From positions 7,979 to 71,978 of the forward strand of contig JAZDJR010000029.1 in assembly GCA_043803815.1 (NCBI GenBank): 64,000 bases of DNA. Direction: 5' to 3'. This DNA is from Candidatus Micrarchaeota archaeon. Lineage in GTDB: Archaea > Iainarchaeota > Iainarchaeia > Iainarchaeales > JAGVWC01. The notes under the pieces are model-generated. The model ran no database searches, had not been told where the DNA came from, and saw nothing but the letters and a program-made list of their open reading frames with translations. A program made the translations under genes and the position numbers. Below, piece by piece: positions 33,291-52,250 of this stretch (position 1 is the stretch's first letter; each line of letters opens with the position of its first letter).

Positions 33291-33304
33291 GCTATCCTTT
33301 TATC

Positions 33305-36043: not shown

Positions 36044-36118
36044 AATTTTTAAAATAGTGCCGGTTTGGTGTTATCCGGTTCGCTTAACCTGGTTCAACTA
36101 TTTTTTTATTTCTTTAAT

Positions 36119-37837
36119 TTAAACCTGAATGACATTGTCTGCGTATTTTGCATATTTTTCGTCGTGGGACACGAGAATTATTTGCTGCTTTTTTGATATT
36201 TGTTTTAGTAAATTCATCGTGTTTTCGAGCCGGTCTTTGTCAAAAGAGTGAAACGGGTCGTCGAATATGAGTGGAATTGGCTTCCCGGCAAGTTCTTTTG
36301 CCACAATTATCCTGATAGCAATATAAATCTGGTCTTTGGTTCCTTGGCTTAACTGGCTTATTGGGATTGAATTTTTTGTTTTTGGGTCAATTATTTGAAT
36401 ATCGGTAATATCATTGTAGCTTACTTGGGTATACTTGTTTGAAGTAATTTGCTGGAGCAACTCGCCTATTTCTTTGTTTATTTTTGGGGTAAGCTGACTT
36501 TGAAGTTCAGTATACGCTGCTTGGAGGTATTCTGTTGCGGTTTCATACGCCTGGATTTTTGTATTTAAGTCGTTAAGCTGGGCGTCAAATTGTTCTTGCT
36601 TTTCTTTTAATTCAACGGGGTCAGCGTTCATTTCGGCGATGGTTTCGACTTGGCCGCATAGTTTGGAATATTTTTTTTCGAGTGAGGGGATTTCGGTGTT
36701 AAGGGTTTCGAGTTCGTAGAAATGCTCGTCATTGAATGGCTTTGCCGAAAATTGTTCGTTTTGAGTTTTGGCTATTGCGAACTCGTTTCGCGCGTTCGTC
36801 TCTTCCGCGTTGAGTTCTATTATCTTGTTTTTTTTATTTTGAATAAACTGTGTCGGGACGTTCGTTTGGTTAGGTTGGGGTTTTTTGTGTTTTCTGTATA
36901 AATGAATCGCAAGGGGTATCGCGACTATTAACCCGATTATGGTAACCGCGAGTATTAGCGCAAGGATTGCCAGTAAAATATCCATATTGGAAAATTTGGC
37001 TTTTTGCTGGATTATTGGCTGGCTTTCTAATTCTTTTATTTCTTTTTCGAGTTCTTCCTTCTGAGTGGTGATTCCTTTGTATTTTTTTTCAAGCTCTTGC
37101 GCTTTTTCTTCGAGCGCTTTTTTTGTTTTATTTTCTTCGAATGCCGCTTGTAGTTGTTTCTGGCGGGGCTTTTTTTCATTGAGTTGTTTGTCTAAGTATT
37201 CAAGCTCAGCTTGGTGGCCTTTTTTCTTTTCGTGATATTGCTCTACTTGGGGGATTTTTTCGTTTAAGTCATCGAGTTTTTCTTCCAATTCTTGTTTTTC
37301 TTGTTCAAAGCTCTTTGTTTTTTTTGCTATCTTTCGGTCTATTTTTGAAAAAGACTCTTCTTCGGTCGGGGTTTGGTTTAGAAATGCATCGTAAAATTTT
37401 GTTTGCGTATTTTGGTCGTCGATAATTCCGATTTGGTTTTGGGCCACAAAGGTGGTATTTTTGAAGACTTTTTCATCGACTATTCCAAAATGCTTTGCGA
37501 CCATTTGATTTATTTGGTCTTTTTTTTGGGTTACTTTTTTTGTCTTTAATTCAGTAAGTTTATCCGCTTGACTGATATAATCGCGCTCTATGGAAAACTG
37601 TTTTCCATCTAGCAAATATGTCAGTTTGGTTTCACAGGTGGTTTCTTGACCCCAGGATATTAGCGGTTCTATAACTGGGGTTCTTCTGTGAAATACTGCT
37701 GATAACAATGCTTCTAACGTGGTTGATTTTCCGGCTTCGTTTTTTCCAATTATCACATTAAAGCCCGGTTTGAGCAAAATGGTTTTTTTCTTGTCAAATT
37801 GCCGAAAACCTTGGAATTCAAGTTTTTGAAACTGCAT
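36119..37837 (-). CDS. Rad50/SMC-like ABC ATPase with central TM segment (YhaN-like)
   Basis: GKNEAGKST, coiled coil, hydrophobic apex, LSQGT signature, LIFDDPF, VSH. Confidence 0.88.
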   Translation of the reverse strand: MQFQKLEFQGFRQFDKKKTILLKPGFNVIIGKNEAGKSTTLEALLSAVFHRRTPVIEPLISWGQETTCETKLTYLLDGKQFSIERDYISQADKLTELKTKKVTQKKDQINQMVAKHFGIVDEKVFKNTTFVAQNQIGIIDDQNTQTKFYDAFLNQTPTEEESFSKIDRKIAKKTKSFEQEKQELEEKLDDLNEKIPQVEQYHEKKKGHQAELEYLDKQLNEKKPRQKQLQAAFEENKTKKALEEKAQELEKKYKGITTQKEELEKEIKELESQPIIQQKAKFSNMDILLAILALILAVTIIGLIVAIPLAIHLYRKHKKPQPNQTNVPTQFIQNKKNKIIELNAEETNARNEFAIAKTQNEQFSAKPFNDEHFYELETLNTEIPSLEKKYSKLCGQVETIAEMNADPVELKEKQEQFDAQLNDLNTKIQAYETATEYLQAAYTELQSQLTPKINKEIGELLQQITSNKYTQVSYNDITDIQIIDPKTKNSIPISQLSQGTKDQIYIAIRIIVAKELAGKPIPLIFDDPFHSFDKDRLENTMNLLKQISKKQQIILVSHDEKYAKYADNVIQV

Positions 37838-37845
37838 TTTGTCAC

Positions 37846-38931
37846 CTATAGTTTTCCGTCTAGTGCACGTAATCCGATTCGATAGGCCAGTTCTTTAACT
37901 TTCATTTCTTGGCCATTTTTTTCATTTTTTATTGATTCTTGCATTAATCGAATAAATCTGCCGCGAAGGCTTGCGTCCGGAATTTCGTTCATTGGAATGT
38001 GGGTTTGGTCGTTAATTTCCAGGTAAAAATAGTCGTCTTGAAAGTGTTCTACAAGTGAGTCTGCATCAATTTCGGTTGGATTGGCTGGGGTTCCTTTGAG
38101 GGTGAGCCGTAAACTTGTGTTTATGTCCGCATTTTGTTTTAAAATTTCAAATGCGCGGTTTTGATTTTGGGTCAGGTCAATTTCTTCTAGTTTGTACGTC
38201 GTTTCGTTTGTTTTTTGTTTTTGAACTTTTACCGTCTCTTCGGTAGTTTCAACTAGTAAAATATTTGATTCGCCGGCTTGTGAAAAACTTAATGGTTCGG
38301 GAGTGCCGGCGTACCATGCGGGTATTTTTGTGTCTAATTGGCTTGTTTTGTGGAAATGTCCCAATGCGAGGTATGTGAGTCCGCTGTTTTCAATGTCTTT
38401 TTTGTCTATTGGCGCATAGGCTTTTTCTTCTTCTTCAGCCCAGTTAAATTTTGTGTAAGAGCCGTGAACTATCCCGACATTTATTTTTTCCGGTTTTTTT
38501 ACTTCAAAAGCTTTCAGTGGATCCGCATCCGGATTTTGATAATTAAATGCACAGCCATGAATAATCCATTCGCCTAAATCGAAACTTTCCATTTTGCTGT
38601 TGGTAAAAATTTTAACATTGGATGGAAACAAAGAGCAGTCGTATGGATTTTTATCCCCAAAATCGTGATTTCCTGGAACAATAAAGACTGGGATATTCTC
38701 TTTGCGCAATTTATTGAATTCGCTAATTACTGTGTCTATTGTGACTGGGTTTGGAAAACAGGAATCAAATAAATCTCCGCAAATTAACAATGCATCTGCA
38801 TTTTCCTTAATTGAAAAATTTATAATCGTAGAAAAAGTTGTCAATAGTCGTTTTCGTTGTTTATTTGCTTTATTGCCAAGTTTGGAAAATCTGGCGCCTA
38901 AATGCAAATCTCCCGTTTGTACAAAACGCAT
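37846..38931 (-). CDS. Mre11/SbcD-family metallophosphoesterase nuclease
   Basis: DLHLG, GDLFD, GNHD, HG, LGHFH, YAGTPE motifs. Confidence 0.92.
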   Translation of the reverse strand: MRFVQTGDLHLGARFSKLGNKANKQRKRLLTTFSTIINFSIKENADALLICGDLFDSCFPNPVTIDTVISEFNKLRKENIPVFIVPGNHDFGDKNPYDCSLFPSNVKIFTNSKMESFDLGEWIIHGCAFNYQNPDADPLKAFEVKKPEKINVGIVHGSYTKFNWAEEEEKAYAPIDKKDIENSGLTYLALGHFHKTSQLDTKIPAWYAGTPEPLSFSQAGESNILLVETTEETVKVQKQKTNETTYKLEEIDLTQNQNRAFEILKQNADINTSLRLTLKGTPANPTEIDADSLVEHFQDDYFYLEINDQTHIPMNEIPDASLRGRFIRLMQESIKNEKNGQEMKVKELAYRIGLRALDGKL

Positions 38932-39024
38932 ATCGGTCTACCTTCACAGTATACTCCATTTAGAATATCTTAAAAACCAACAAAACTACTCTTCATCGTT
39001 TTCACATTGATTGTATGCCGCTTT

Positions 39025-42000
39025 TTAGTCTCCTTTTGGGCAGTATAATTTGTAGCCGCATTTTTCGCATGTTTTGTCGTCTTGGCTGGGTTCAAAATGG
39101 CTTTTTTGATAGTCTTGGCTGGCTTTTTGGGCGATTTCAAGCAATTCGGCTTGTATTTCTTGGAGCTTTGCAGGGTCTGTGCGGCCGCCGATTTCGGTCA
39201 TGTCGCCTTCAGGGCTTAGGTTATACGTGCGGGGTTTTTCCTGTTCCAGTAGCTCATAGGTTAGGTGTTTGACGGTGTATCCTTTGGCTTTTAGGGTTTG
39301 GTCGTTTTGGACTGCTAGTGCATAGAGCAAGAGTTGGCGTGCGCGCTTTGTTTTGTCGGGTTCTTGGCCGGTTTTGTAGTCGATGATTTCAATTTCATTG
39401 GTTTGCGGGTTTAATTTGTCAATGCGGTCGATTTTTCCTTTGAAGTAATAACCGTCGAGTTTGAATTGGAATCCTTGTTCGACTGAAATGTTATTTTGTA
39501 ATCTGTCGGCTTGTCGGGCCCAGAATGTATCAAATATAAGTTTGGCCCGTGCGTGGTCGATGCGTGAGTAGTCTGGGTGTTGGGCGGTTTGGTGGGCAAT
39601 TGTTTGGAGTTGTTCGCGGCTGGTTATTTTTTGTTGGACTGCAATTTCTAGTGCGCGGTGGATATATTCGCCGAATTTGAGGGCACCGTCTCCTTGGTTG
39701 TCGTTTTGGCGGGTTGGCATTCGTAGGATGTGGGCGAGTTCGTATTTTTTGGGACATTCATCGTAGGTGGATAATGCGGTGAAAGAGAAGGGCGTGTCGG
39801 CGGGGTTAAAGGTTTGGCTGTTAGTGTTTTCATTTTTGGTTTTTTCGAGGATTTGCTGGGCTTCTTGGTTGGCTTTTTGGATTTGGTCTGAATTGGGGTT
39901 GATGGGCTTGCCGGTCAGGGTTGTGTAGGTTAATAAGTGGTGGAATGCTTGGTCTGGGTCAGTGTCGATGTTGGCAATTAAGAGTTTTTTGATTTGGGCT
40001 TTTTGGCGTTCGAGGTCGGTGTCTTTGAGGATGTCGCGGGCTTTGACCTCATTGTCGGTTATGAGTTCAAGGTCGGCGTGGGTTTCGGTTAGACCGTAGC
40101 CGGCTTCGCGTAGGAAAATGGATGGTTCGCGCTCATTATCGGAGTAGGTTTTAGCAAAGCACAGGTTAAGATTTTTTTTCGCGCGCGTGCAGGCAACGTA
40201 AGCTAATCGTCTTTCTTCTTTTTGTTTTTCAGTTTTTTTGAGTTCTTTGATTTCCTCTTTGGCTTCTTTTGGTGATTTCTCTTTGAGAATGGGCGCATAG
40301 CGTTCGTCCAGGGCGTCTGGAATAAGGGGTTCTCGACCACCTCTGGTGAGTGGGAATTTATCTTTTACAAGGTCAAGGATGAATACATGATCGAATTCGA
40401 GGCCTTTGGCGGCGTGACAGGACAAAAGGATGATTCCTTCGTCAGTCGCGAGCTGTTGTGCTTCAAGTTCTTCGCCCATTTCGCCGAGGGTTTCCAAATA
40501 TTCAATGAATTCGAATAATTCTGAGCCGTGAATGTCTTGGAATTTAATAGTCAAGTCGTGTAAGTATCGTAGGTTGAGCAAGGATTGTCGGTTTTCATGA
40601 GTGGATTCGTACGAGAACCAACGTGATAGTCCTGTGCTTTCATAAATATCAAGCAAGAGATTGGAAATGGTTTTGTTTTTGTTTTTTCGTAGCTCCTCAA
40701 TTTTGGCGCTTAAGCGGGCGAGCTTTTCTTGGCCGTCGGAGGATAGTCCAGTTGGGGGTTTGCTGAACAAAACATGTTGAATGCTGTCGTATTTAGCTGC
40801 GTGGGCTAGTATATGGGAGTCAGCATTGCTCAAGCCATATTTGTAGTGCAGTAACTTCCACCAGGCAGGGTCTGCTGCAAAGGTGGGTTTTTCCATATTA
40901 GCAATGACGTAAAGATACGCGAGGCTTGTTCGGATTTCTGGGCATCGAAAAAAGCTGGTGCCGCCTATACTTTGGTATGGGATTCCACGTCGATCTAACG
41001 TATTTTGGATTTCTTGGGCAGATGAATATGAGCGGAATAATATGGCAATTTCATTATATGGCGTGCTGTTCGAATGTACTGTTTCGATTTCCTCGAGAAC
41101 CCGGCGGGCCTGTTCTTTGGGGTCAATCGTTTGCAATAATTTGACTTTGGTGCCTTCGGTTTGAAATGCGGATTCAAGTTGTATGGCTCTGGTCGGGTCC
41201 GAATAATTGTTTTGTACGAGTCGGTGGGCGGTCCGTAGAATTGTGTTCGTCGAGCGATAATTTTGCTTTAAAGCTAGTGTTTGGGCATTGAACTCTTTTT
41301 CAAATGCCTCCAAATTATTGGCATACGCTCCGCGAAATGCGTAAATTGCCTGATTAGGGTCGCCGACAACCGTGATTTTTTTTTGTTCGCCACACAATAC
41401 TTTCAACAAATCGAATTGTTGTCGGTTCGTGTCCTGGAATTCGTCCACAATCACATAATCAAACATTTTGGCCAGTTCTTCTTCGCCGCCTTCGGCTGCC
41501 CAATCAAGTACGCGCTTGTTGAGGTCCGCATAATCCAACAAATTCTTCTCCTCTTTGATTTGTTCATAGGCCGTCCATGCATTCAAAAAATTCGAATAAT
41601 CTTCATATTCCGCAAATAAGTCCAAAAAGTCCCGGAGTTCCTTCTTTTCCAGTTTAGTTTCTCCAGTCGCCCGCTCTAAATGTAATGTTTGAAGCCGAAG
41701 TCTCGCTCTATGAACATATTCTGCCAAATCCGAACCATCTGTCAACTCGTCCACTTGTCTTTTTAAGTCTGTTAAAAACGATTCATACTGTGCGGGCGTC
41801 AAATTCAGGTCTTTGGCTTTTTCTATGCTTGACACATAAAACTTGGCATTGTAAGCGGGAATCCCAAGCCTTCGATGCAACAGAATGGCGGCATCAATTT
41901 CATCCACAATCTGGGCTCCTTCAGTCACGCCCGTTTGCGTTGAATGTGAAACTAGTAAATCGTAACAAAATGCATGAAATGTGCTAGCTGTACTCTCCTG

Positions 42001-42258
42001 TGCTGAAGGTAAAACCTTCTCGACATCTTCCTTCATTTTGCGCGCAGCCTCGCGAGAAAAAGTAAGCATTAATAAACGTCCAGGTATAATCCCTTTTTCC
42101 TTTATCAAAAATGCAGCCTTGGCAGTAATCATCATCGTCTTACCCGTGCCTGCGCCAGCAATGACTAAAACAGAGCCGTTAGTCGATTCAACAGCTTGGC
42201 ATTGTTCGGGATTTAGCTGTTTGCCGGTTTCCGTTTGGAACCATTCAAAAAAAGTCAT
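39025..42258 (-). CDS. UvrD/SF1 helicase fused to a C-terminal PD-(D/E)XK nuclease with Fe-S-type cysteines (AdnB/AddA-like)
   Basis: AGAGTGKT, VDEFQD, VGDPNQAIY, NYRS, HAAKGLEF, YVACTRA; CPKKY...GKIDRID...IIDYKTG...CEKCGYKLYC. Confidence 0.92.
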   Translation of the reverse strand: MTFFEWFQTETGKQLNPEQCQAVESTNGSVLVIAGAGTGKTMMITAKAAFLIKEKGIIPGRLLMLTFSREAARKMKEDVEKVLPSAQESTASTFHAFCYDLLVSHSTQTGVTEGAQIVDEIDAAILLHRRLGIPAYNAKFYVSSIEKAKDLNLTPAQYESFLTDLKRQVDELTDGSDLAEYVHRARLRLQTLHLERATGETKLEKKELRDFLDLFAEYEDYSNFLNAWTAYEQIKEEKNLLDYADLNKRVLDWAAEGGEEELAKMFDYVIVDEFQDTNRQQFDLLKVLCGEQKKITVVGDPNQAIYAFRGAYANNLEAFEKEFNAQTLALKQNYRSTNTILRTAHRLVQNNYSDPTRAIQLESAFQTEGTKVKLLQTIDPKEQARRVLEEIETVHSNSTPYNEIAILFRSYSSAQEIQNTLDRRGIPYQSIGGTSFFRCPEIRTSLAYLYVIANMEKPTFAADPAWWKLLHYKYGLSNADSHILAHAAKYDSIQHVLFSKPPTGLSSDGQEKLARLSAKIEELRKNKNKTISNLLLDIYESTGLSRWFSYESTHENRQSLLNLRYLHDLTIKFQDIHGSELFEFIEYLETLGEMGEELEAQQLATDEGIILLSCHAAKGLEFDHVFILDLVKDKFPLTRGGREPLIPDALDERYAPILKEKSPKEAKEEIKELKKTEKQKEERRLAYVACTRAKKNLNLCFAKTYSDNEREPSIFLREAGYGLTETHADLELITDNEVKARDILKDTDLERQKAQIKKLLIANIDTDPDQAFHHLLTYTTLTGKPINPNSDQIQKANQEAQQILEKTKNENTNSQTFNPADTPFSFTALSTYDECPKKYELAHILRMPTRQNDNQGDGALKFGEYIHRALEIAVQQKITSREQLQTIAHQTAQHPDYSRIDHARAKLIFDTFWARQADRLQNNISVEQGFQFKLDGYYFKGKIDRIDKLNPQTNEIEIIDYKTGQEPDKTKRARQLLLYALAVQNDQTLKAKGYTVKHLTYELLEQEKPRTYNLSPEGDMTEIGGRTDPAKLQEIQAELLEIAQKASQDYQKSHFEPSQDDKTCEKCGYKLYCPKGD

Positions 42259-42989
42259 ACGGTCCCTCTAAAATAATTTTCTAACTTTTTAATTGTTCCA
42301 TATTTTTTGTAGTTATTATTGAACCAAATATCTGAATCTTTGATACTTTTCGCGTAGTCCCATTTTTTCGTGTGAGTTTGCTGGATTATTTTTGCTTCTT
42401 TTGGAAATTCAAAAAAAGATATACCTCTTTTGACGTTTGTAAATCGTTTATAGATTTTTTTATTTAATCTCAAGACCGATGCTGGAACCCAAAAAATACG
42501 CTTTATTTTCCAGCTCGACTTTTTAAACTCGGGATAATCTTCTCTTCCATGAAGAGTAATCAAAGCGGCAAAATCAAATTTTTCATCCCCTTTTTTATTT
42601 TTTGTACCAAACCTCCAACCCCATTGATAAATTCTGCGTTTGAATTTCCACTTTTTATTTCTCTTGATATGCATAAAGTCCTGGTTTGGATAGACTCCCT
42701 CATTTTTCAAAGTTGAAGTTTTTACTTCAATTCTGACTTCCTTTCCTTGGAACTGCAATAGTAAGTCATATCTGTGATGGCCACTTTTGTAATACACTTT
42801 GGCTTTTGGAAATTCACGCAAAAGGAGCTGTGCCACTTGGAATTCCCCATATGTGCCGATAATCGAATTGGCAATTTTTAGACCGGTTTTATCAGAATAA
42901 TTCCTGATTTGGCTAATCAATTTGAGCCCTTTTTTAATTATCTGTTTATTCAGCGGTTTGGGTGCTTCCTTTCTGTTCTTTCTACGCAT
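42255..42989 (-). CDS. PD-(D/E)XK nuclease (restriction endonuclease-like)
   Basis: GTYGE ... YDLL ... IEVKTS. Confidence 0.7.
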   Translation of the reverse strand: MRRKNRKEAPKPLNKQIIKKGLKLISQIRNYSDKTGLKIANSIIGTYGEFQVAQLLLREFPKAKVYYKSGHHRYDLLLQFQGKEVRIEVKTSTLKNEGVYPNQDFMHIKRNKKWKFKRRIYQWGWRFGTKNKKGDEKFDFAALITLHGREDYPEFKKSSWKIKRIFWVPASVLRLNKKIYKRFTNVKRGISFFEFPKEAKIIQQTHTKKWDYAKSIKDSDIWFNNNYKKYGTIKKLENYFRGTV

Positions 42990-43062
42990 CGCTGTTTTCC
43001 CACCTGTAATTTATCAAGTTCAGTATCATTTTTCTTCATTCGTTGGTATTTTTTTCACTTTG

Positions 43063-44448
43063 TTACATCTCAAGTGTTTGTAAAGCTATTTTTCCAATTA
43101 TTTCTGTTAAAGCGTCTTCGAATTCCCGTGATACATCGGATGTCCCGCTTGTGGCGTGGGTTGCTTCGTGCAATAGCACGCCCGCGTATGTTTGCAGGTC
43201 TTTTAGTTGGTCGCGTTGGATTATTATGTTTGGGTAGTCCCATAGTCCGGCTGGTTGGAATCCGTTTGCTTCCAGCCGCATGGTTTCGGTTATTAGGATT
43301 TTTTTTACGCTAGCGGGTTTTCCGCCGATTAGGTCAAGTAATTGCTTCGTTTTTGAAAATATTTCTTGTTCTTTTTGGTTAAGTTGTTTTTCGTCGATGA
43401 ATTTGAATTCGAAGCTTTCGTTGAAGTTTTGGACATATTGGCCCAGATCAATCATTGGGTTGCCTTGGATGTCCTTGACTCCTTGAATTTTTTCTTTAAC
43501 ATTGTCCGGTATCACAATTACCTTGTAACCGTCTTTTTTTGCTTGGTCGATTAGTTCTTTTTTTTCAATGAGTTCGAACGAGGTTGCGAATACAACTTTT
43601 TCAAAGCTGTTAAGCAGTTTGCAGGCGTGGACGGAAACTTCAACTCTGCTTACTTCATCGTGCATTTCCCCTGCTCCGAACTGTTGGAGGTCTTTGACCA
43701 ACTGTTCCGCGACGGGCTTGGTTTGGGATTGTAGCAGTATTTCCATGATGCGGTCGGAATAAGCGGTGCGGCCTACGTTTGAGCGTTCTCGGTTTAATGC
43801 TTTTCGCAATTTTGCAGTCATTGATGTAATATTGTATGAAAAAAGGTAATTTTCTTCAGTCGCTACTTTGAGGCCCGTAATGTAAATGATTGCTTGTTTG
43901 TCTGTTTTTTCGTAAATTTCGCCTAGTTTTGTTTTTTCGAGGATTTTGGATTGGGAAAATTTGAGAAAATTGCTTTTGGCAGCATCCATGTCTTTTTTAC
44001 TGCAGCCTTTTAGGATGATTTCTGTTCCTTGAAAGTTTTTGTCAGCGCTGGATTCGTCGATGATAGCATGGAGTGTTTTGACGTCTTTAAACCCGTGTTT
44101 TTCGAATTTTTGCGTTGTGATGCTTCCATGGCGGGAAATGATTTTGATTTGGATTCCATAGCGGTCAAATGTTGCAAATGCATCTTTGAGGCCGACTCCG
44201 AATTTACCGATGACTTTTTCCGGGTTATTTAGCTTTTCTTGGTTTTCGTTTTGGGTTAAGTGTTTGTAATGAACGCCGCGTCCATAGTCTCGGATATGCC
44301 AACCGTCTTTGTTTTCAAAGATGTCGATTTCTTTAGTATTGGATAGTATTTGTTCATCCATAGCGTTGGAAATGACTTCTCGTATTCCGTCAGCTACGGT
44401 CCAGTTTTCAAGGACCTTTTCAATGTTTAAATCGAATTTATTTTCCAT
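43063..44448 (-). CDS. GHKL ATPase (MPN635-like) fused to a C-terminal HExxH metallopeptidase-like domain
   Basis: REVISNAMDE, IRDYGRG, GKFGVGLK, GT motifs; LLHEATH near the C-terminus. Confidence 0.8.
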   Translation of the reverse strand: MENKFDLNIEKVLENWTVADGIREVISNAMDEQILSNTKEIDIFENKDGWHIRDYGRGVHYKHLTQNENQEKLNNPEKVIGKFGVGLKDAFATFDRYGIQIKIISRHGSITTQKFEKHGFKDVKTLHAIIDESSADKNFQGTEIILKGCSKKDMDAAKSNFLKFSQSKILEKTKLGEIYEKTDKQAIIYITGLKVATEENYLFSYNITSMTAKLRKALNRERSNVGRTAYSDRIMEILLQSQTKPVAEQLVKDLQQFGAGEMHDEVSRVEVSVHACKLLNSFEKVVFATSFELIEKKELIDQAKKDGYKVIVIPDNVKEKIQGVKDIQGNPMIDLGQYVQNFNESFEFKFIDEKQLNQKEQEIFSKTKQLLDLIGGKPASVKKILITETMRLEANGFQPAGLWDYPNIIIQRDQLKDLQTYAGVLLHEATHATSGTSDVSREFEDALTEIIGKIALQTLEM

Positions 44449-44459
44449 GGGGTGTCTCG

Positions 44460-45053
44460 CTATAATCGTGCTATTTTTCCGGCATCGGTTAATTTGTGTC
44501 CGTTTTCGGTTTCCTCGATGAATCCTTTGTCTTTGAGTTCTTTGATTGCGCGGTAGACCATGGCGGGGCTCAATTTAGTCTCGTCTGCGAGTTTGGCGAT
44601 TTGGGTGGAATCTTCGATTCGTTCCAATACCTTTTGTTGGCTGTCGGTCAAGTCGAATGATAATATGGGGATTGTAATTATTTCATTTTTTTCTTCGGTC
44701 ACGTATATTATTTTTTTTATTTTTGTACTTCGTTGATAGCCGGCAAAAAGGACTCCAAAGCTTTGAGTGCGGCGACCGGTTGATACATTTAGGTAAATTT
44801 CGTCCCCGTTCGGAACCATATCAATCATATCTGTTACCGCGTGTGCAACGGAAACGATTTCGTATACGGGTACTTTTTTTTCTTTTATTTCGATTATTTT
44901 TTCATAGTGTTCTTTAATTGTTTTTATTGCGGCTTGCTGTTTGTCGTCGGTTTCAGTGCTTGAGAGCAGGTAAACCCGATCAATGGAAAAGCGATTGATG
45001 GCCAAAACAATTGAATCAGTCCGGTATACGGGAGTAATTAGCACTCTTGCCAT
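44460..45053 (-). CDS. CARF-HTH transcriptional regulator (Csa3/DUF6293-like)
   Basis: RVYLL, IYLNVSTGRR CARF motif; C-terminal wHTH ...LKDKGFIE...LTDAGKI. Confidence 0.85.
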   Translation of the reverse strand: MARVLITPVYRTDSIVLAINRFSIDRVYLLSSTETDDKQQAAIKTIKEHYEKIIEIKEKKVPVYEIVSVAHAVTDMIDMVPNGDEIYLNVSTGRRTQSFGVLFAGYQRSTKIKKIIYVTEEKNEIITIPILSFDLTDSQQKVLERIEDSTQIAKLADETKLSPAMVYRAIKELKDKGFIEETENGHKLTDAGKIARL

Positions 45054-45097
45054 GATGAACTAGTAACTGTAACCGTTTATAAATATTTGGAATTGTA

Positions 45098-45128
45098 TAC
45101 TGAAAAAGAGGTTTTCTACTGAAAAAGA
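45098..45128. promoter_or_regulatory. 12-bp direct repeats in the divergent promoter region
   Basis: TACTGAAAAAGA at 45098-45109 and 45117-45128, between oppositely oriented TATA-like boxes. Confidence 0.5.
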
Positions 45129-45182
45129 TACTTTTTTAATGATTTTGATACTCCTTCTTGCTAAAATCAAGGGGTTGAATGG

Positions 45183-45458
45183 ATGAGCACCTATAGTAGA
45201 GGTATTGCAGCGGAAAATAAAATCAAAGCAAAGCTTCAGAATAAAGGCTGGCTGGTGCGCCAATCGCCTGGGAGCAGGGGTCCGTTTGACCTTTATGCCT
45301 TGAAAGGTGGACGTAAAATGCTGGTCCAGGTTAAGTCTGGGACAGCCCATTTGACTACTCAAGGTCGTTCGGATTTACGTTGGGTAGCCAAAAGAAAAGG
45401 GGCCACGGCGGTAAGCATGCACGTGCGGGGTCGACAAATCCGTTCAAGGTTTGTTTAA
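45183..45458 (+). CDS. Hjc-like small PD-(D/E)XK nuclease
   Basis: RGIAAE...GWLVRQSPGSRGPFDLYA...LVQVKS. Confidence 0.8.
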   Translation: MSTYSRGIAAENKIKAKLQNKGWLVRQSPGSRGPFDLYALKGGRKMLVQVKSGTAHLTTQGRSDLRWVAKRKGATAVSMHVRGRQIRSRFV

Positions 45459-45471
45459 GTGGTGATATTAA

Positions 45472-45855
45472 ATGCCAAATCGAAATGAGCATATTGTCCT
45501 TGGTTGCCTTCTTGCTGGCGGCGCTTATTTGCTATTTAAACGAGTTGTTAATGAAAAACCGACTTGGGGCGGATTGATAACCTCGGTGGCTGCCGGTGGT
45601 GCAATTGGACTTCTTCCAGACTTATTAGAGCCTGCTACTAACCCAACTCACAGAAATTTTTTTCATAGCGCTCTTGCTCTTGGAACCGGGACGTATGGCA
45701 CTTATAAAGTTCTTCAAAACCCGCTCTTAAATCAAAATCAAAAGCAGTTTCTCTTGGCATTGTTTGCGGGATATGCCAGTCATTTACTAGCTGATGCAAC
45801 AACCGCGCGCAGTATTCCACTCCTTGGAGTTGGTGAAGGATATGGGGAATACTAG
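45472..45855 (+). CDS. YdjM-like membrane metal-dependent hydrolase
   Basis: MPNRNEH, LLPDLLE, HRNFFHS, GYASHLLAD. Confidence 0.85.
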   Translation: MPNRNEHIVLGCLLAGGAYLLFKRVVNEKPTWGGLITSVAAGGAIGLLPDLLEPATNPTHRNFFHSALALGTGTYGTYKVLQNPLLNQNQKQFLLALFAGYASHLLADATTARSIPLLGVGEGYGEY

Positions 45856-46318
45856 TCGCGGAGAGTCCCGAAGCGGGAGTTCGTATAGTCGAACAAGTGG
45901 CTTTGGCTTGTCAGGACAAACAATTGCCATTACTCGAAGAACACTTAAAAATGAAACGCCTACCGAAGCGGGGACTTTTGTTGCAGGCGTAATTCTCCAG
46001 GGAACCGGAATTGACCTTCTTTTATCAGTTTATCAGGCCGTGGTTTATTCTTATGATAAATACCAAAAGTTCGAAAATCGGTCCTGGGTAGTTGGGGAAG
46101 AACAAGCGCTTCAAGAGATTTCAGTCGAAGTTGGAAAAGATGCCTTAAAAAGCACAGTAAAAAAAATGGCTTCTCAAGCTATCGTTAATGCGGTTGTAAC
46201 TGAGTTGGAGGAAAAAAAGATTATTCCGCCTGAATTGAAAAACCGGACAGAAGAAATAGTCGATGACCTCATTGATTTGGGCATTGATAAATTGGAGAAA
46301 CAATTTTTAGAGGAGTGA
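45842..46318 (+). CDS. Hypothetical protein with Gly/Ser-rich N-terminus (MGNTSRG...), candidate QatB-like partner
   Basis: GGTGA RBS before ATG 45842; low-complexity N-terminal tail followed by helical body. Confidence 0.7.
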   Translation: MGNTSRGESRSGSSYSRTSGFGLSGQTIAITRRTLKNETPTEAGTFVAGVILQGTGIDLLLSVYQAVVYSYDKYQKFENRSWVVGEEQALQEISVEVGKDALKSTVKKMASQAIVNAVVTELEEKKIIPPELKNRTEEIVDDLIDLGIDKLEKQFLEE

Positions 46319-46322
46319 AAAA

Positions 46323-46607
46323 ATGGGTCAAATAAACACGGATGATTTATTGTTCAAGGCCACGTATGCCACTCTTATCAAACAAGCGCAGCATATGTTG
46401 AACACTAAAGAGTTTGCTGAACGATTCAAGCTAAAAACCCGTGAAGAAAAAATTGAAATAAAAAAGAAAATGCTTGAAAAGCTAAAAGGGTACGCCGTTG
46501 AAATCGTGCAACAGTTGCCTGAAAATGTTGAAGGGGGCCAGGATATCCAAAAGCTGAAGCCAAAGCTGATAAAAATAATGCAAGGGTGTCTTGATGGCCA
46601 AGCTTGA
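46323..46607 (+). CDS. Small helical hypothetical protein (MGQIN...)
   Basis: GGAGTGA RBS, overlaps the QueC-like gene. Confidence 0.7.
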   Translation: MGQINTDDLLFKATYATLIKQAQHMLNTKEFAERFKLKTREEKIEIKKKMLEKLKGYAVEIVQQLPENVEGGQDIQKLKPKLIKIMQGCLDGQA

Positions 46608-47808
46608 ACACTATTTTACCCGTTTTTCGGAGATAAGCAAGTTTTACAAAGAAAGGAAAGGAAAATACGCGGCTGAAAAAGTTATTCCGCCGAGGCAACG
46701 GGACCTCACTAAATTTGTAGAAAGGGTAAACTTTCTGGAAAGGGACGATTTTCAAAATGAAATGGAATTTGAGTGTATTGATTATGATTTTTGGGAAAAA
46801 CAAAAACCATTACTAAAGAGCTTAATTGAAGATATTGTTGAACGGCCCGTCGAGTTAAACCTTAAAAAAATCCAAGATCCTTTTAAAAAATCAAAATGGG
46901 GCGTCCAACCTGCCGGAAAAGCACCCCTCGTTCTTTTTTCCGGCGGACTGGACAGCTTTCTTTCAGCGTATGAAAATCCAAACGCAGTCCTGGTGCATGT
47001 AAATATTGCCAAGGGAATGCACCCGTATGCAAAAAAATCAAGAGAATTTTTACCTTTAACCCAACCCTACTTTGAGATATCATTTACAGCTTACAAGCCG
47101 CCAGCAAAGGCGGGCGGTGTGTCCAGTTGTCGCGGTCTAACCTTCATCTGCCTAACTTCACTGCTAATTCCTGCATTTAATGCCGACCGAATAATAATCG
47201 GGGAAAATGGAATCCTAATCCATAACCCGCCGTTATTCGAAGGCGCCAAAATGACACGAGGGCTGCGTCCAACAATTACCTCAAAAATTGAACAACTGCT
47301 TTGCCAAGTCTATGAAAAAAAGATTAATTTGGAGTTTCCTAATAACAGCCTCACAAAAACCCAAGTAATCGAAAAAATCATGAAAACCCCCCCTTGGCCA
47401 GAAATACTGCCAAAAACAAGCTCCTGCTTTCATCAGCAACCGCATAGGGGAATAAAGAAAAAAATTCCCATGTGTGGCGTATGTTACGCCTGTATTGTTC
47501 GTCAACTCGGAACCCTTGCGCTCGGAGTAGACGAGTCAAAAAACTATTTAAAAAATCCTTTCAAAGAATGGGATTCAAAAGGAAACGGGCTAATGTTTGT
47601 GATTGACTTATGCCGCCTAATTAAACTCTACAAAAAAGGGCTGCTTTCAGTAAACCAAGCCAATATCATCCTGCAGAACAAGGCTCTTTTTGAGCGCTAT
47701 TTTGACGAAGTCCTTAAGGGTCTCAAGGAGGCACAAGCGCGAAAACTAACAGGAGACTTCGTTGATAATGAAATTGCAGAACTTGCGAAGCTTAGTCCTT
47801 TCTGCTGA
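46594..47808 (+). CDS. QueC-family PP-loop protein, QatC-like
   Basis: LFSGGLDS, IGENGILIHNPP, TR..RP, LTKTQV, TSSC, CGVCYACIVR; ~404 aa, much longer than tRNA-pathway QueC. Confidence 0.85.
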   Translation: MAKLEHYFTRFSEISKFYKERKGKYAAEKVIPPRQRDLTKFVERVNFLERDDFQNEMEFECIDYDFWEKQKPLLKSLIEDIVERPVELNLKKIQDPFKKSKWGVQPAGKAPLVLFSGGLDSFLSAYENPNAVLVHVNIAKGMHPYAKKSREFLPLTQPYFEISFTAYKPPAKAGGVSSCRGLTFICLTSLLIPAFNADRIIIGENGILIHNPPLFEGAKMTRGLRPTITSKIEQLLCQVYEKKINLEFPNNSLTKTQVIEKIMKTPPWPEILPKTSSCFHQQPHRGIKKKIPMCGVCYACIVRQLGTLALGVDESKNYLKNPFKEWDSKGNGLMFVIDLCRLIKLYKKGLLSVNQANIILQNKALFERYFDEVLKGLKEAQARKLTGDFVDNEIAELAKLSPFC

Positions 47809-47847
47809 ATTTTTTCACTGTTTTGGTTTAAAGCCTATTTTTGGGGT

Positions 47848-48075
47848 TTGTTTTGTATGCAGACTGTTTTGCAGTGGGGAAAGAAGCGTTCTTTGGATTC
47901 TCGTCAGGCCGAGGTAGTGGTTCCTTTTTCGTATTATTTGGAGCAGTTTGGCGAGTGGAAGGAGCTGCGCGGGGACCCGGGGCGGAATGCGGAGCGGTTG
48001 AAGCATTTTGAGTCCTTGCACGGAAAGGCGTTTATTGAATCTTTGTTTTTGTTTGAGAAAGTGGTGGGTGACTAA
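47848..48075 (+). CDS. Small hypothetical protein
   Basis: Short ORF continuing the operon; start uncertain. Confidence 0.45.
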   Translation: MFCMQTVLQWGKKRSLDSRQAEVVVPFSYYLEQFGEWKELRGDPGRNAERLKHFESLHGKAFIESLFLFEKVVGD

Positions 48076-48076
48076 A

Positions 48077-48232
48077 ATGCGGGATTTGGATAAAGTGGGT
48101 TTTAATTCGAATTCGCCGCTGCGGAACTACATTAAGCTGTCCGAGCGGATTGATGAATTGAATGATAAGATTCGGGAATTGGAGCAGTTGACGTTGGATG
48201 CTGTTGTCCGATTGAATGAGCGTAAACAGTGA
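48077..48232 (+). CDS. Small coiled-coil protein
   Basis: GGTGA RBS; LSERIDELNDKIRELE heptads. Confidence 0.5.
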   Translation: MRDLDKVGFNSNSPLRNYIKLSERIDELNDKIRELEQLTLDAVVRLNERKQ

Positions 48233-48414
48233 ATAAAGCCGTTTTTGTCCTATTTAATAGGGGTCTTTTTGGCTTGTTGGGCCTGTCGTTAACGGTTGAC
48301 GCGTTAACGCGCTATTTGGGAAAGTTTTAAATCGGTGCGTAGGAATAGTATGTTAGAACCTTTTCTGACCCATAGGGACTGGTTTGCTGTGGCGAAAGCC
48401 CAGAAGTAGTATTT

Positions 48415-49773
48415 TTATTTTTTATTTTTTTGTTTGATTGTTTTTTTGGGCGGGGTTTTCCAGTAGCCGCCTTTGTCTGGGCCAATTCTTTTGAGACTGC
48501 CTTGTTTTTTTAGGTTATTGATTTGCCATTCTATTCCTTTGGGGCTTATTCCTGTTTTTTTTGCCAGTTCATCGGTCGTTATTCTTGGCTGTTCGATTAT
48601 TAGGTCCACTATTTTCTCCCTAGTTTTCTCCCTAGTTTTCTCCCTAGTTTTCTCTTTGGGGTTTTCTTTGATTTTTGGTCTTTGAAAGGTCACGGTAAAA
48701 AATGTGGTGAATTCGAATTTTGGTTCTGGCAGTCCCGCTTCTTGCATTGCTTTTCGTATTCGGGCGATGCCGGAGCCGGCGTGTTCGACTAGATTGCTTT
48801 GTTGCAATAGTCCGAATAGGAGCGGGTTTCGGGATAGGCTTCTTTTTCCGAAGTCGCTTTGTTTGATGATGAGGCCGCCGGGATTTGATATTTCGACGCG
48901 GTTGTCGAAAACGTCTATTTGGGTTACGGCTCCTTTTTCGCTGTAGTCGCGGTGGCAGAGCGCGTTGATAATGGCTTCTTTGAGGGCTTCTTCGGGAATT
49001 TCGAGTATTTCTTTTCGGGGTCCAAATCCCTTTATTTCGTAGCGAAGTTTTAGGGTTCGGTACAAAAACTTGGATGTTTCGTTGTAATTGGAAACCGTGT
49101 CGTTTTTGAAGTCTTTTTTGTCAATGATGAGTGCTTTGTCGGTTCCTTTGTAGGTAATGCAGGTGATGATGCTTTGGGGGATGAACTTGGAAGGGTTTTT
49201 TCCAAAGAAAAGGATGGCTGCGTTTTTGAATTGGTTTTTTTGGTTTGTCAAACCCAAATTGTAGAATAGGTCTTTTTTTGGAATGGTTTTGGATATGCCA
49301 GCTTTTTTTAAAAACTCGTTGAATCGCTTTGTGTCAAAATCCTTCAAGGCAAAATCGGGGTTTATCATTTCTTCATACAGTATTTTTCCCTGTCGGTTAA
49401 AAAGTTCCCGTATTTCTTCGACTTCAAGTTTTTGGGAAGTGGAACCAATTCGCAAATAGAATCCTTGCGTGCAACGGTGCGGTTTTCGGTCGCTTTCCGG
49501 GACTGTGATAATAAGGACTTTTTTGAATTCTGAAATCTTGATGGAAATTGGCGGGTCGCAACTTCGAGCAATACTGTGGGCATCGGCCTTCAACCGGTTG
49601 GTAATATTGATTCCTTTGATTTTGTTGTCATCACTTACTCCGACCAGAATATCGCCGCCTTCGGCATTGGCAAAAGCCACGAGGTCTTTTTCAATTCCGT
49701 TCAGGTTTTCCTTGAACTCGCTTCGATAATCCTCGCCCTTTTTCAGGATAAAATCAAAGGTCTTTTTTTCCAT
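48415..49773 (-). CDS. Schlafen/AlbA_2 + HATPase-like + wHTH protein
   Basis: EFKE...LVAFANAEGG, EAIINALCHRDY, ISNPGG, RNP, GSGI, RIGPDKGGYW. Confidence 0.88.
   Translation of the reverse strand: MEKKTFDFILKKGEDYRSEFKENLNGIEKDLVAFANAEGGDILVGVSDDNKIKGINITNRLKADAHSIARSCDPPISIKISEFKKVLIITVPESDRKPHRCTQGFYLRIGSTSQKLEVEEIRELFNRQGKILYEEMINPDFALKDFDTKRFNEFLKKAGISKTIPKKDLFYNLGLTNQKNQFKNAAILFFGKNPSKFIPQSIITCITYKGTDKALIIDKKDFKNDTVSNYNETSKFLYRTLKLRYEIKGFGPRKEILEIPEEALKEAIINALCHRDYSEKGAVTQIDVFDNRVEISNPGGLIIKQSDFGKRSLSRNPLLFGLLQQSNLVEHAGSGIARIRKAMQEAGLPEPKFEFTTFFTVTFQRPKIKENPKEKTREKTREKTREKIVDLIIEQPRITTDELAKKTGISPKGIEWQINNLKKQGSLKRIGPDKGGYWKTPPKKTIKQKNKK
48612..48654. repeat. 12-bp tandem repeat encoding (KTRE)n
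   Basis: TTTTCTCCCTAG repeated about 3.5 times, in frame. Confidence 0.85.
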
Positions 49774-49813
49774 ACAAAATCAACTGTCCAAAAACCATTA
49801 TGCCCGCTTGGCT

Positions 49814-49939
49814 TTAAAAACGCTTTTCCAGCAACACCTTGATTTCTGCCAATAGCTTGTTTTGCTGGGCAAGCAGGCGGTTGGTTTCTGCTACCTCGTT
49901 TTTTGTTTTGACGAGTTGGATTACTTCTCCGAAACCCAT
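49814..49939 (-). CDS. 41-aa coiled-coil micro-protein downstream of the integrase
   Basis: GAGGTGG RBS; MGFGEVIQLVKTKNEVAETNRLLAQQNKLLAEIKVLLEKRF. Confidence 0.55.
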   Translation of the reverse strand: MGFGEVIQLVKTKNEVAETNRLLAQQNKLLAEIKVLLEKRF

Positions 49940-49940
49940 T

Positions 49941-51140
49941 TCAAACCACCTCTTTTTTCAGTTGCGTGGCTTGGGTAATGGCTTCTTGGATGATGTTGGG
50001 GTTGGTTTTAGCCATTTCAAGCAATTTCATTACTGCGACCATGGCTTCTTGGTCTTTTTGGCGCGTCATTTCCACTGAATTGATAGCCTGGGGGGTCAAC
50101 GGTAGCCAGCATTGTTTACAGTATTGGCTGTTTACGTCGTTGGGTGTTTTGCAGCGGGGACAGTTTTGTTGTAGTAAAATGATTTCTTTTTTTTCGGGTT
50201 TTTTTAAACCGTTTAGCTCCAAAATTGCGTTGTCGACTTGTTTTCCGGACAGGTGGACGTAGCGTGAGGCCATGTCGCTTCCTTGGGTCCAGCCGAAGTA
50301 TTCTTTCATTTGGGCTTCAGTCAGGAATTGCGCCATGTAGGTTGCGCGTGAGTGTCGGAAGTGGTGGGGGTTGACTGGTTTTTTTATTCCCGCGCGTTTG
50401 GCGGCGCCGCGGATTACTTTGATGATGTAGGCGTAGACGACTTGCTGGGTTTTTTTTCGGGTAAGCGTTACCCACAAGGGCGCGTTGGGGTCGTGGTTTT
50501 GGGGGTGCTCATTTATCCATTCCAATAAATAGGGTGCGCTGGATACTAGTCGGATGCGGCGCATTCCGGTTTTGCCGTCGACCATTACTTGACACCCGAA
50601 TTCGTCGAATTGCACGTTTTTGAGTTGTAGGCCTCCAATCTCTCCTATTCGGGCCCCGGATTCCCAGATGCACGAGATAAGTGCTTTGTCGCGTTTGGTG
50701 TGTGTGTTTTGGAGCAGGGTTTTTACTTCTTCTTGGTTTAATAGGTCGTCCGGCAGTCGTTTGTATTTGGATTTGGAACCGCTTTTTATCCAGGCCACGC
50801 ATTCGGGGTAGGTTCCTTTGTTGAACCACTTGTAAAACACTTTTAGGGTGGCTCGAAAAGTGGCAATGGATTCTTCGGCATAGTCGCTGGTTTTCATCCA
50901 GACCAAGAAGGTTTCCACGTCTTTGGCGGTAATCGTGTCAAAGGGTTTGGGGATTTTTTGGCTGAAAAGGCGCAAACAGGATGCTATGCGTAGGATTCGG
51001 GGGGTTGAAATGCCGTTTACGGTTTCAAAGTTGTGGAAATCCGTCATCCATTGCTTGTTTTGGCTTGGAATGTCGGCTTTTTCAATTCGTTCCTGTTCCT
51101 TGACTAGGTAGTGGTCGTAGTCGTGTAGGTATTTTCTCAT
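49941..51140 (-). CDS. Tyrosine recombinase/integrase with C-terminal zinc ribbon
   Basis: ESGARIGE, GKTG, HHFRHSRAT, GW, RYVH; CPRC...CKQC; adjacent to att/tRNA. Confidence 0.95.
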   Translation of the reverse strand: MRKYLHDYDHYLVKEQERIEKADIPSQNKQWMTDFHNFETVNGISTPRILRIASCLRLFSQKIPKPFDTITAKDVETFLVWMKTSDYAEESIATFRATLKVFYKWFNKGTYPECVAWIKSGSKSKYKRLPDDLLNQEEVKTLLQNTHTKRDKALISCIWESGARIGEIGGLQLKNVQFDEFGCQVMVDGKTGMRRIRLVSSAPYLLEWINEHPQNHDPNAPLWVTLTRKKTQQVVYAYIIKVIRGAAKRAGIKKPVNPHHFRHSRATYMAQFLTEAQMKEYFGWTQGSDMASRYVHLSGKQVDNAILELNGLKKPEKKEIILLQQNCPRCKTPNDVNSQYCKQCWLPLTPQAINSVEMTRQKDQEAMVAVMKLLEMAKTNPNIIQEAITQATQLKKEVV

Positions 51141-51207
51141 CAAATCACGTCTCCTTTTACCCAACCGAAAACCAATTAAAAGAGACGGATTCAAACAATT
51201 TGGTAAT

Positions 51208-51311
51208 TGCAGGCGGGCAGATTCGAACTGCCGAAAGCCACTAAGGCACAAGCCCATTGACCGTTGATACGGGCCTCAAGCTTGCGAAATTGACCGCTAT
51301 TCGACGCCTGC
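51208..51311 (-). tRNA. tRNA-Leu(GAG) with a 19-nt intron (51255-51273); integration target
   Basis: GCAGGCG/CGCCTGC acceptor, CAAGC/GCTTG stem, long variable arm, canonical BHB (TTGA/TCAA, CCGT/ACGG). Confidence 0.93.
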
Positions 51312-51416
51312 ACTATTGTAAAAGGGTTCAATAGTCCTTTTAAAATCTGTTCTCCCTGCTTGCCGATTCTTGCCGAATTTAATAGTACTGCTTGCGCACT
51401 AAAAAAAATAATGATA

Positions 51417-52250
51417 TTAATTGGGCTCATTTTTCAGGCTGGCGTTGAAGCAGACATGGTTAAATGTGACATTATCCGTGGTCACTTCGATTTCAAGCTG
51501 TTGAACATCAATTGCAATTTCGGCGGACTGCTTGTCCGCGCTTAGAACAACGGTTTGGTTCCCGTTAATCCGAAAAGCCGGCTTTCCGGCGGGGTTTTGG
51601 CTTGCGGCGTCGTCCAAAAAACCGAAGAACAAGGTTCCTTTCACGGGTTTGGAATATTTTAGCACTAAGGTTTTGTCCGAGAACGGGTGGGAAAAAACGC
51701 ACAGCATTTTTTTGTATTCAATCGGACTGTAAACGGTTGTTATTTTTTCCCAATAATTGGATCCGCAGATGAATGCATTGCCAAAAAAAGGACACGTTTT
51801 TTTTTCTTTGTTTTGCAGGGTAAACACTTCAAACTCTTTCAAATGTTCGCTTAGCAAAAAAACCTTTTTTTTGAACTGCAAAAAAGACGTTCGATAGGCG
51901 CAAATCGTTCCGACTTTGATTTCTTGGCTGCTCGAAAAAACGGTTCCGCAAAACGCCACTTTCCAATACGTTTCATACAATGATTCATCCGGATTGGCAT
52001 TTGGTCGCGCGTCAAAACTCGTGAACCGGCCCATATGCGCGTCCAATGCAAAAAACCGCAGGTAATCGGGCTCAAAAACAATCTGCTGGCCAATCATTCC
52101 CTGTTTTTCCAAGGCCGCGTTCAGATTGTCCCATGCGCTTCCCAGCGGAATTTCGGAGTAAACCACGCTTCCCCATAACGCGATAAATGCCCACATTAAA
52201 AAAATTGCGAGCCGAATCCGCTTTGCTTTTTTTTCGGTTTTTGTATCCAT
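51417..52250 (-). CDS. Membrane-anchored extracellular protein
   Basis: N-terminal TM, beta-rich C-terminus. Confidence 0.65.
   Translation of the reverse strand: MDTKTEKKAKRIRLAIFLMWAFIALWGSVVYSEIPLGSAWDNLNAALEKQGMIGQQIVFEPDYLRFFALDAHMGRFTSFDARPNANPDESLYETYWKVAFCGTVFSSSQEIKVGTICAYRTSFLQFKKKVFLLSEHLKEFEVFTLQNKEKKTCPFFGNAFICGSNYWEKITTVYSPIEYKKMLCVFSHPFSDKTLVLKYSKPVKGTLFFGFLDDAASQNPAGKPAFRINGNQTVVLSADKQSAEIAIDVQQLEIEVTTDNVTFNHVCFNASLKNEPN

Follow-up and report, generated by a model that had tools for sequence, protein, structure and literature searches.

Does a short operon in a small-genome archaeal lineage encode a defence unit of the QatB-QatC kind and, if it does, which of its proteins would be modified and with what? 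The operon lies at positions 45183-48232, on the + strand, of the 64,000-nucleotide (nt) stretch of DNA analysed here as a whole (the window), which is contig C29:7979-71978 of genome G000, an assembly of 1.08 Mb in 36 contigs that is 85.6% complete. The small-subunit rRNA of G000 has an end-to-end match to the archaeal model (1409 bits), and the relatives of G000 have genomes of 0.5-1.5 Mb. Four papers from 2026 establish that QatB and QatC are the smallest part of Qat able to defend and, in the portions available, leave open what QatC attaches and how phage is stopped (PMC13279940, PMC13376578, PMC13639016). A first-pass annotation, made from the sequence alone, had proposed an undescribed archaeal system in which a QueC homologue of QatC type attaches a deazaguanine to the N-terminal glycine of a small partner and a nuclease or membrane hydrolase serves as effector; as a whole, that interpretation is partly supported. 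The locus is real and coherent: an archaeal defence island holds a module of QatBC type, from a rare lineage, in which two proteins make up the substrate side.

The operon consists of seven closely spaced open reading frames (ORFs), and all of those named in the first-pass annotation are present on the + strand. Three of them matter most: p158 (45842..46318, + strand, 158 amino acids (aa), beginning MGNTSRGESRSGSS), a candidate substrate at Gly2; p94 (46323..46607, + strand, 94 aa, beginning MGQ), which may serve as adaptor or form the other half of a QatB-equivalent; and a QatC-like PP-loop enzyme of the QueC superfamily (46594..47808, + strand, 404 aa from ATG or 405 aa from TTG 46591). There are 4 nt between p158 and p94, and the last 14 nt of p94 also belong to the enzyme gene. 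Upstream, p91 and p127 are 13 nt apart and p127 overlaps p158 by 14 nt; the spacing of the genes from p91 to the enzyme is operon-like. The genes for p158, p94, and the enzyme are the conserved core, whose likeliest mode of action, at roughly even chances, is that of QatB-QatC in the Qat anti-phage system.

The QatC-like enzyme

The translation of the enzyme holds LFSGGLDSF, IIGENGILIHNPP, MTRGLRP, SLTKTQ, TSSCF, and MCGVCYACIVRQ, which include every QatC-type motif read in it earlier: the SGGLDS loop, ENG..NPP, T221-R-G223..P226, T254-K255, and a Cys4 zinc site (C278/C294/C297/C300). The residues S116, G117, G118, D120, S121, C278, C294, C297, and C300 do not vary within the enzyme's clade and vary little or not at all in a 60-sequence alignment. 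QatC is the sole family matched in NCBIfam and PADLOC, with NF041925 at E 8.6e-20 (residues 59-381 on model positions 46-394 of 398) and the PADLOC model at E 2.8e-13. The best sequences of solved structures are those of QatC 9vlk and 9zee (E about 0.01-0.02), and their alignments span SGGLDS, ENG, TR..P, TK, SC, and CGxCxxC. The threonine T278 of Pseudomonas aeruginosa QatC aligns with T221 of the enzyme and is kept.

An AlphaFold2 model built from the 60-sequence alignment has a pLDDT of 90 and a pTM of 0.91, and its top Foldseek matches are QatC 9y02_B (E 3e-12, 408 columns, TM 0.64) and 9y01_B (398 columns), both from QatB-QatC crystal structures. Weaker matches are to QueC 3bl5 (211 columns) and 2pg3, in the range of 211-226 columns, and to Cap9 9nto_B (212 columns). 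The match takes in the full length of QatC and only the core of QueC and Cap9; the modelled enzyme therefore has the N- and C-terminal extensions specific to QatC. In its length of about 400 aa, its QueC core with extensions at both ends, its SGGxDS loop, and its Cys4 zinc site, it resembles the enzyme of the QatB-QatC pair.

Could the enzyme's substrate instead be a small molecule or nucleic acid, as for QueC or the Dpd-type pathways, with the small ORFs unrelated or unexpressed? The Pfam QueC domain (PF06508) is matched at E 8.3e-6, the closest named homologue is annotated as 7-cyano-7-deazaguanine synthase, and homology among the small proteins of different loci is not demonstrable; however, the Pfam match is limited to model positions 138-205, the C-terminal zinc-site part. 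The enzyme shares the PP-loop Rossmann core and the zinc site with canonical QueC, but QueC is half as long, and the QueC motifs YxQxHxxE, VPxRN, and YPDC, as listed in the available part of PMC13329287, are absent from the translation. PADLOC's separate QueC model has no match to the enzyme at E <= 0.1, and no TGT or DpdA gene adjoins the enzyme gene. The fold match to QatC takes in the partner-binding extensions, and two recurring, tightly coupled small genes would be hard to explain in an enzyme of this other type, which makes such an activity very unlikely.

Comparison with type IV CBASS leads to a similar distinction. Cap9 acts with a QueC-type fold on Gly2 of its partner CdnD, and the same is proposed here for the window enzyme; however, Cap9 is about 185 aa long and has the canonical QueC motifs, according to the part of PMC13329287 available, while the window enzyme has 404 aa, the QatC extensions, and none of those motifs. 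There is no CD-NTase or Cap10/TGT in the operon, and the genome, as far as assembled (85.6%), encodes no SMODS domain. Nor does the operon have the QatA (a KAP NTPase) and QatD (a TatD protein) of a QatABCD system; no PADLOC match to either was obtained among the 10 neighbours scanned. The first-pass annotation had seen no QatA, QatD, CD-NTase, QueE, or TGT in the operon, and this holds; the 85.6%-complete assembly has no KAP NTPase, TatD is encoded on contig C23 only, and an archaeosine-type TGT on contig C17 only. Judged by profile, by predicted fold, and by a tree without Cap9, the enzyme is a genuine but distant relative of QatC, and not a tRNA/DNA-type QueC or a Cap9, as had been suspected from its motifs.

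Close relatives of the enzyme are few: five among 5.8 billion proteins, with 47-51% identity and all metagenomic. A profile search of 1.84 billion representatives gave 5 proteins at E <= 1e-30, including WP_084385885.1 from Methanoculleus horonobensis, and then a continuum of 883 at E <= 1e-10. A scan of genomes, one of metagenomes, and two of viral sequences gave relatives only at 20-31% identity among the matches listed, and a search of a phage collection gave no match. A QatC-like gene is present in 3/215 genomes of the phylum (G000, G056, and G102). G102, which belongs to the same order, has the classical QatA-QatB-QatC set on a 3-kb contig (L222, G102:C19:1-3034), with a KAP NTPase-like QatA and a QatB of 253 aa (MGTSQSSSGPGG); its QatC is nearest in the tree to QatC of the MGTS type (defined below) from loci of the viral-contig collection, with 59% identity to that of L174.

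Two small proteins on the proposed substrate side

The gene directly upstream of QatC-like ORFs was compared in 201 fetched loci other than the window's own copies, not de-replicated. On the same strand, the upstream protein begins MGH in 121 loci and MGTS in 31, is part of the split layout described below in 5, and is of another kind or cut by the contig end in 44. The MGTS group is QatB, as a profile of 29 sequences matches QatB 9zee_A in the PDB at 2e-41. The MGH group has a partner of 256-269 aa (about 260) with the start MGHxRLGxLP, without any Pfam or PADLOC family, upstream of long QatC-like proteins of about 600-700 aa. Examples are L002-L004, L007-L012, and many others, among them L004:8767-11404, in which the enzyme matches PADLOC QatC at E 2.5e-55; most are in alphaproteobacterial genomes and viral-collection contigs. 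These pairs and the window have in common a Met-Gly partner directly upstream, but the MGH partner is a single, larger protein of another family, its enzyme is longer, and it belongs to another group of the tree.

The MGHxRLGxLP protein with its long QatC-like enzyme looks like a second, commoner Met-Gly partner pair, and no description of it was found in the available parts of the Qat and QueC literature. Such pairs are often on mobile elements; a serine recombinase gene and a Toprim/DUF7146 gene lie near the pair of L004. A further variant is seen in L241, on a Rhizobium leguminosarum plasmid, and in L028, where a partner of about 180-190 aa and a QatC-like protein of about 457 aa are followed by an XRE-type regulator of 395 aa.

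In the split layout, a Met-Gly protein of 120-159 aa, a small protein of 90-141 aa, and a QatC-like enzyme follow each other in this order. It is found in the window and in six further loci of archaeal and bacterial origin, where the genes overlap by 4-19 nt. The lengths of the first protein, second protein, and enzyme are 151, 106, and 437 aa in Bathyarchaeia (L005, first protein MGSQSRKTDKGGAGRSGGGGG...), 121, 90, and 423 aa in Eubacteriales (L013, MGGRRAY...), 120, 99, and 401 aa in Woesearchaeota (L069, MGGRKSA...), and 159, 141, and 479 aa on a Natrinema plasmid with RefSeq annotation (L240, MGSASASSSAASN...). In the relative G056 (L128) the first frame is open to the contig end and the second protein and enzyme have 103 and 423 aa; on a metagenome contig (L081) the first is cut and the others have 93 and 422 aa. 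The presence of the three-gene core in a Eubacteriales genome and on the Natrinema plasmid, as well as of the classical QatA-QatB-QatC set in the same order, speaks against the earlier description of an undescribed archaeal system.

A tree of 101 sequences (IQ-TREE quick mode, LG+G4, without Cap9) was rooted on two canonical QueC of a Mesorhizobium genome, which are set off as outgroup by a branch with a starred support of 99. The enzyme's clade has seven sequences (99, starred) and joins two clades that hold five of the six other split-layout loci, giving a group of 34 (SH-aLRT 84, not starred). All sequences of the MGTS-QatB and MGH types fall in a group of 65 (96, starred), and the enzyme's clade is outside it, on a branch apart from the QatB-associated enzymes of Qat. 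When the Natrinema enzyme was added, it came out as a long basal branch of the MGTS/MGH group; therefore, the split layout is present on both sides of the tree. The window and the six loci thus define a rarer layout, with two small proteins as the substrate side, in a small-genome archaeal lineage, Bathyarchaeia, a haloarchaeal plasmid, and bacteria. No description of this layout was found in the portions of the literature available; Libby et al. left three archaeal QueC-family clusters (7, 8, and 10) unanalysed, as far as the accessible part of their paper goes (PMC13329287).

Which of the two small proteins would be modified? The first protein begins with Met-Gly in 5/5 readable loci (window, L005, L013, L069, and L240; it is cut in L081 and off the contig in L128), while the second does so in 1/7, the window only, the others beginning MID, MSV, MSV, MNK, MSR, and MSE. 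For this reason p158 is the likelier substrate. The first proteins also have tails rich in Gly, Ser, and Ala, and a Shine-Dalgarno string lies ahead of the Met-Gly start in each of L005, L013, and L069. It is improbable, though conceivable, that p94 rather than p158, or both, would be the substrate: p94 is directly upstream of the enzyme, as QatB is, its gene overlaps the enzyme gene by those 14 nt, and among the operon's Shine-Dalgarno strings the one ahead of its Met-Gly start (GAGGAGTGA) is the best. However, the second protein has no Met-Gly in any of the six other loci, and p94 is without the long flexible tail of the first proteins.

The start of p158 bears directly on its candidacy. The 16S rRNA of G000 ends at the 3' side in ...GGATCACCTCCT, and strings that fit it lie 5-8 nt ahead of the starts of p127 (GGTGAT), p158, p94, and the enzyme (AGGGTG, ATG 46594). 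For p158 the string is GGTGA, 5 nt before ATG 45842, from which the protein begins MGNTS; the alternative start, ATG 45794, lacks one. The Met-Gly start at ATG 45842 is well supported but not proven, since a database gene call differs from it (see below). With this start and the five readable loci, the Gly/Ser-tailed p158 is upheld as the best candidate for the substrate proposed in the first-pass annotation.

The two proteins may together be a split QatB. As with QatB, the partner side is immediately upstream of the enzyme, has Met-Gly followed by residues rich in Ser and Thr and a flexible tail, and is set in a defence island; the Met-Gly-x-Thr-Ser start of p158 resembles QatB, and the summed length of 252 aa fits. 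In Qat, however, QatB is a single helical protein of 190-300 aa, while the window has two small proteins without detectable QatB similarity. An AlphaFold2 model of p158 from a 5-row alignment (pLDDT 42, too low for comparison of folds) has residues 1-39 unstructured, followed by five helices; the N-terminal tail of about 39 residues is rich in Gly, Ser, and Arg. Co-folding of the enzyme with p94 and p158 gave 0.55, 0.66, and 0.00 in three runs and 0.00, 0.41, and 0.32 in controls, which speaks neither for nor against binding.

The proposed reaction and its carboxylate

Methionine aminopeptidase removes the initial Met before a small second residue. It would expose Gly2 of p158, and the flexible Gly/Ser-rich tail would then reach into the active site of the QatC-like enzyme. 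There, the enzyme would adenylate a carboxylate with ATP bound at the SGGLDS loop, and attack of the alpha-amine of Gly2 on the adenylated intermediate would give an N-terminal amide adduct. If Cap9 and QatC are a guide, the carboxylate would be 7-carboxy-7-deazaguanine (CDG), the least secure step of the scheme, and p94 would be a second subunit that replaces part of the single 190-300-aa QatB. The binding of p158 by the enzyme, its modification, and the chemistry are predictions. Cap9 is reported to ligate CDG to Gly2 of its CD-NTase (10.1101/2025.04.06.647259), and for Escherichia coli Qat an NDG-modified GTSKAY peptide of QatB has been reported from liquid chromatography-tandem mass spectrometry (PMC13639016). 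In Qat, defence is lost when QatB carries G2D, and QatBC by itself protects against lambda-vir (PMC13279940). These statements, and those from the same papers below, are taken from the portions available.

Several results weigh against a module that works in this way. The enzyme scores 71 bits against the NCBIfam QatC equivalog, far under the cut-off of 280. QatC has two invariant threonines, T278 and T280 in P. aeruginosa, in place of the Tyr/Asp of QueC; at the position of the second the enzyme has G223, a glycine shared by 6/6 members of the clade (T-x-T-T is retained in the other split-type clade), and the double mutant T278A/T280A is dead in Qat (PMC13279940). On the substrate side, p158 and p94 have 12-22% identity to their positional analogues, for which reason position and size are what argues for homology across loci, and the locus comparison covers loci other than the neighbourhoods of the five closest enzyme homologues (47-51% identity). 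The p158 and p94 groups match the 29-sequence QatB profile with hhalign probabilities of 5% and 1%; neither protein has a Pfam or PADLOC match, and p94 has none in NCBIfam. A word-based homologue search with p158 gave the window's own protein only, and a search of the ESM Atlas with p158 and p94 gave nothing above chance level. The database gene call puts the start of p158 at TTG 45908, which gives 136 aa and removes Gly2.

The supply of a deazaguanine is a further point on the same side. The 85.6%-complete assembly encodes no canonical QueC: its sole PF06508 match is the enzyme itself, and no PTPS/QueD was found. The only QueE-like match is NrdG, adjoining NrdD; no QueE was found. QueC at E <= 1e-10 is found in 0/61 genomes of the phylum, G000 included. 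As to the enzyme family, one group found no CDG-stimulated activity for QatC (PMC13376578), so the first substrate of QatC is disputed between this paper and PMC13639016, and a third calls the reaction unresolved (PMC13279940). The specific claim of deazaguanylation in the first-pass annotation is weakened by these results.

The same results favour an alternative in which the ligase logic is unchanged and Gly2 receives another cellular carboxylate, as the host would be without CDG synthesis. In addition to the missing QueC, QueD, and QueE, G223 stands in place of the second substrate-pocket threonine, and QatC is without the Tyr and Asp that read deazaguanine and had no CDG-dependent activity in vitro (PMC13279940, PMC13376578). 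The NDG-modified QatB peptide argues the other way, as do the 85.6% completeness of G000 and the TGT on C17, whose presence implies that the cell obtains a 7-deazaguanine precursor of some kind. A different carboxylate is on balance unlikely. A QatB-QatC-like reaction in this host would require either precursor uptake, a pathway in the missing 14% of the genome, or another attached group.

The presence of TGT together with the absence of QueC (61 genomes) and of QueD and QueE (G000) suggests salvage of a 7-deazaguanine precursor or an unmodified tRNA position 15. Viruses, archaeal ones included, encode 7-deazaguanine pathways for the modification of their DNA. Because the host lineage appears unable to make CDG, the enzyme is perhaps idle until CDG is provided by an infecting virus that produces 7-deazaguanines to put into its own DNA. 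Gly2 modification on p158 would then itself sense the infection, so that a viral metabolite of anti-restriction function would turn the defence on; the substrate would have two subunits where Qat has QatB, and the nuclease or membrane hydrolase would act as output. This is a speculative idea, less likely even than the small-molecule activity discussed above.

Whichever group is attached, a natural QatC-like system whose host has no detectable deazaguanine pathway is well suited to testing what the first substrate, now in dispute, may be, and a minimal version with three genes may be easier to reconstitute. If the chemistry is the same as in Qat, the module extends what is known of Qat only incrementally.

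Upstream genes, possible regulator, and island

The operon begins with p91 (45183..45458, + strand, 91 aa), a minimal protein of the PD-(D/E)XK nuclease fold. It matches Pfam PDDEXK_5 at E 7.2e-6, with 26.5 bits just over the cut-off of 26.1, and its candidate catalytic residues, read from the translation, are E11, D36, and Q49-x-K51. The earlier label "Hjc-like" is weak, as the Hjc model gives 16.6 bits, under its cut-off of 21.1. The next gene, p127 (45472..45855, + strand, 127 aa), encodes a membrane-bound metal-dependent hydrolase of the YdjM/DUF457 type, in agreement with the first reading (Pfam YdjM E 3.7e-11; NCBIfam metal-dependent hydrolase E 4.7e-6), and is found in 1/215 genomes of the phylum, G000 itself.

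Both would be co-transcribed candidate effectors, special to the window locus and outside the conserved core. A PD-(D/E)XK or YdjM-like gene is beside the module in 0/6 other loci (neighbours Pfam-scanned in L005, L013, L069, and L240), where the immediate neighbours differ and are mostly without any family. For that reason co-transcription is what argues for an effector role, and the earlier choice of the nuclease or membrane hydrolase as effector is weakened. Are they, then, an independent cassette or mere neighbours in the island? The closest YdjM-like homologues (40-47% identity) are on contigs of 4899, 1313, 23636, 3049, and 65113 bases and the closest QatC-like homologues on contigs of 43768, 4037, 18021, 3316, 3985, and 2668 bases, none equal to those of the former, and QatBC alone can defend, according to the available part of PMC13279940. 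However, comparison of contig sizes is an indirect test of co-location, the overlap of p127 with the start of p158 leaves no room for a promoter between them, and classical Qat also has a nuclease, QatD. The two readings of p91 and p127 are judged to be evenly balanced.

Downstream of the enzyme are the two micro-ORFs of the first-pass annotation, which are present and better read as 47857..48075 (+ strand, 72 aa, ATG start, putative) and 48077..48232 (+ strand, 51 aa, ATG start preceded by the Shine-Dalgarno string GGTGGGTGA). The first is 48 nt from the enzyme gene and 1 nt from the second; neither has a family match, and for the first this covers Pfam, PADLOC, and NCBIfam. An Rfam scan of 40000-52000 gave no family.

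A 129-nt spacer (45054..45182), with divergent genes on either side, is the likely promoter region of the operon. A scan for promoters and terminators, of bacterial type while the host is archaeal, gave counts no higher than those of shuffles. On the other side of the spacer, a Csa3-like CARF winged-helix protein is encoded divergently (44460..45053, - strand; PADLOC CARF3 at E 1.5e-60 over the full length; Pfam HFX_2341_N, Csa3_N, and HTH_24). It is a possible regulator of the operon and, if so, may put it under cyclic-oligoadenylate control. The spacer contains a 13-nt direct repeat, (A/C)TACTGAAAAAGA, at 45097-45109 and 45116-45128. Across the window, with up to 2 mismatches, the repeat has 7 matches against 2.8 expected; as 5/100 shuffles reach 7, it is the adjacency of the two copies that is of note.

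A defence role for the operon is suggested by the surrounding island, which in Pfam, PADLOC, and NCBIfam scans ends in a XerA-type integrase of 438 aa (49941-51257). A search of 28000-53000 for direct repeats as integrase attachment sites gave nothing convincing. Upstream are an ArdC-N/M78 peptidase protein (32310-33290), a restriction-modification enzyme of MmeI type (33305-36043), an SMC-like AAA_23 ATPase (36119-37837), a calcineurin-like phosphoesterase (37846-38931), and a UvrD/AddA-like helicase-nuclease of 1077 aa (39025-42258); a weak PD-(D/E)XK protein of 244 aa and an HATPase_c_3 protein of 461 aa also lie within 32310-44448. Convergent with the operon is a gene for an SLFN/AlbA_2-HATPase_c_4-wHTH protein (48415-49773), which holds a 12-nt tandem repeat at 48612-48659 that codes for a repeated peptide.

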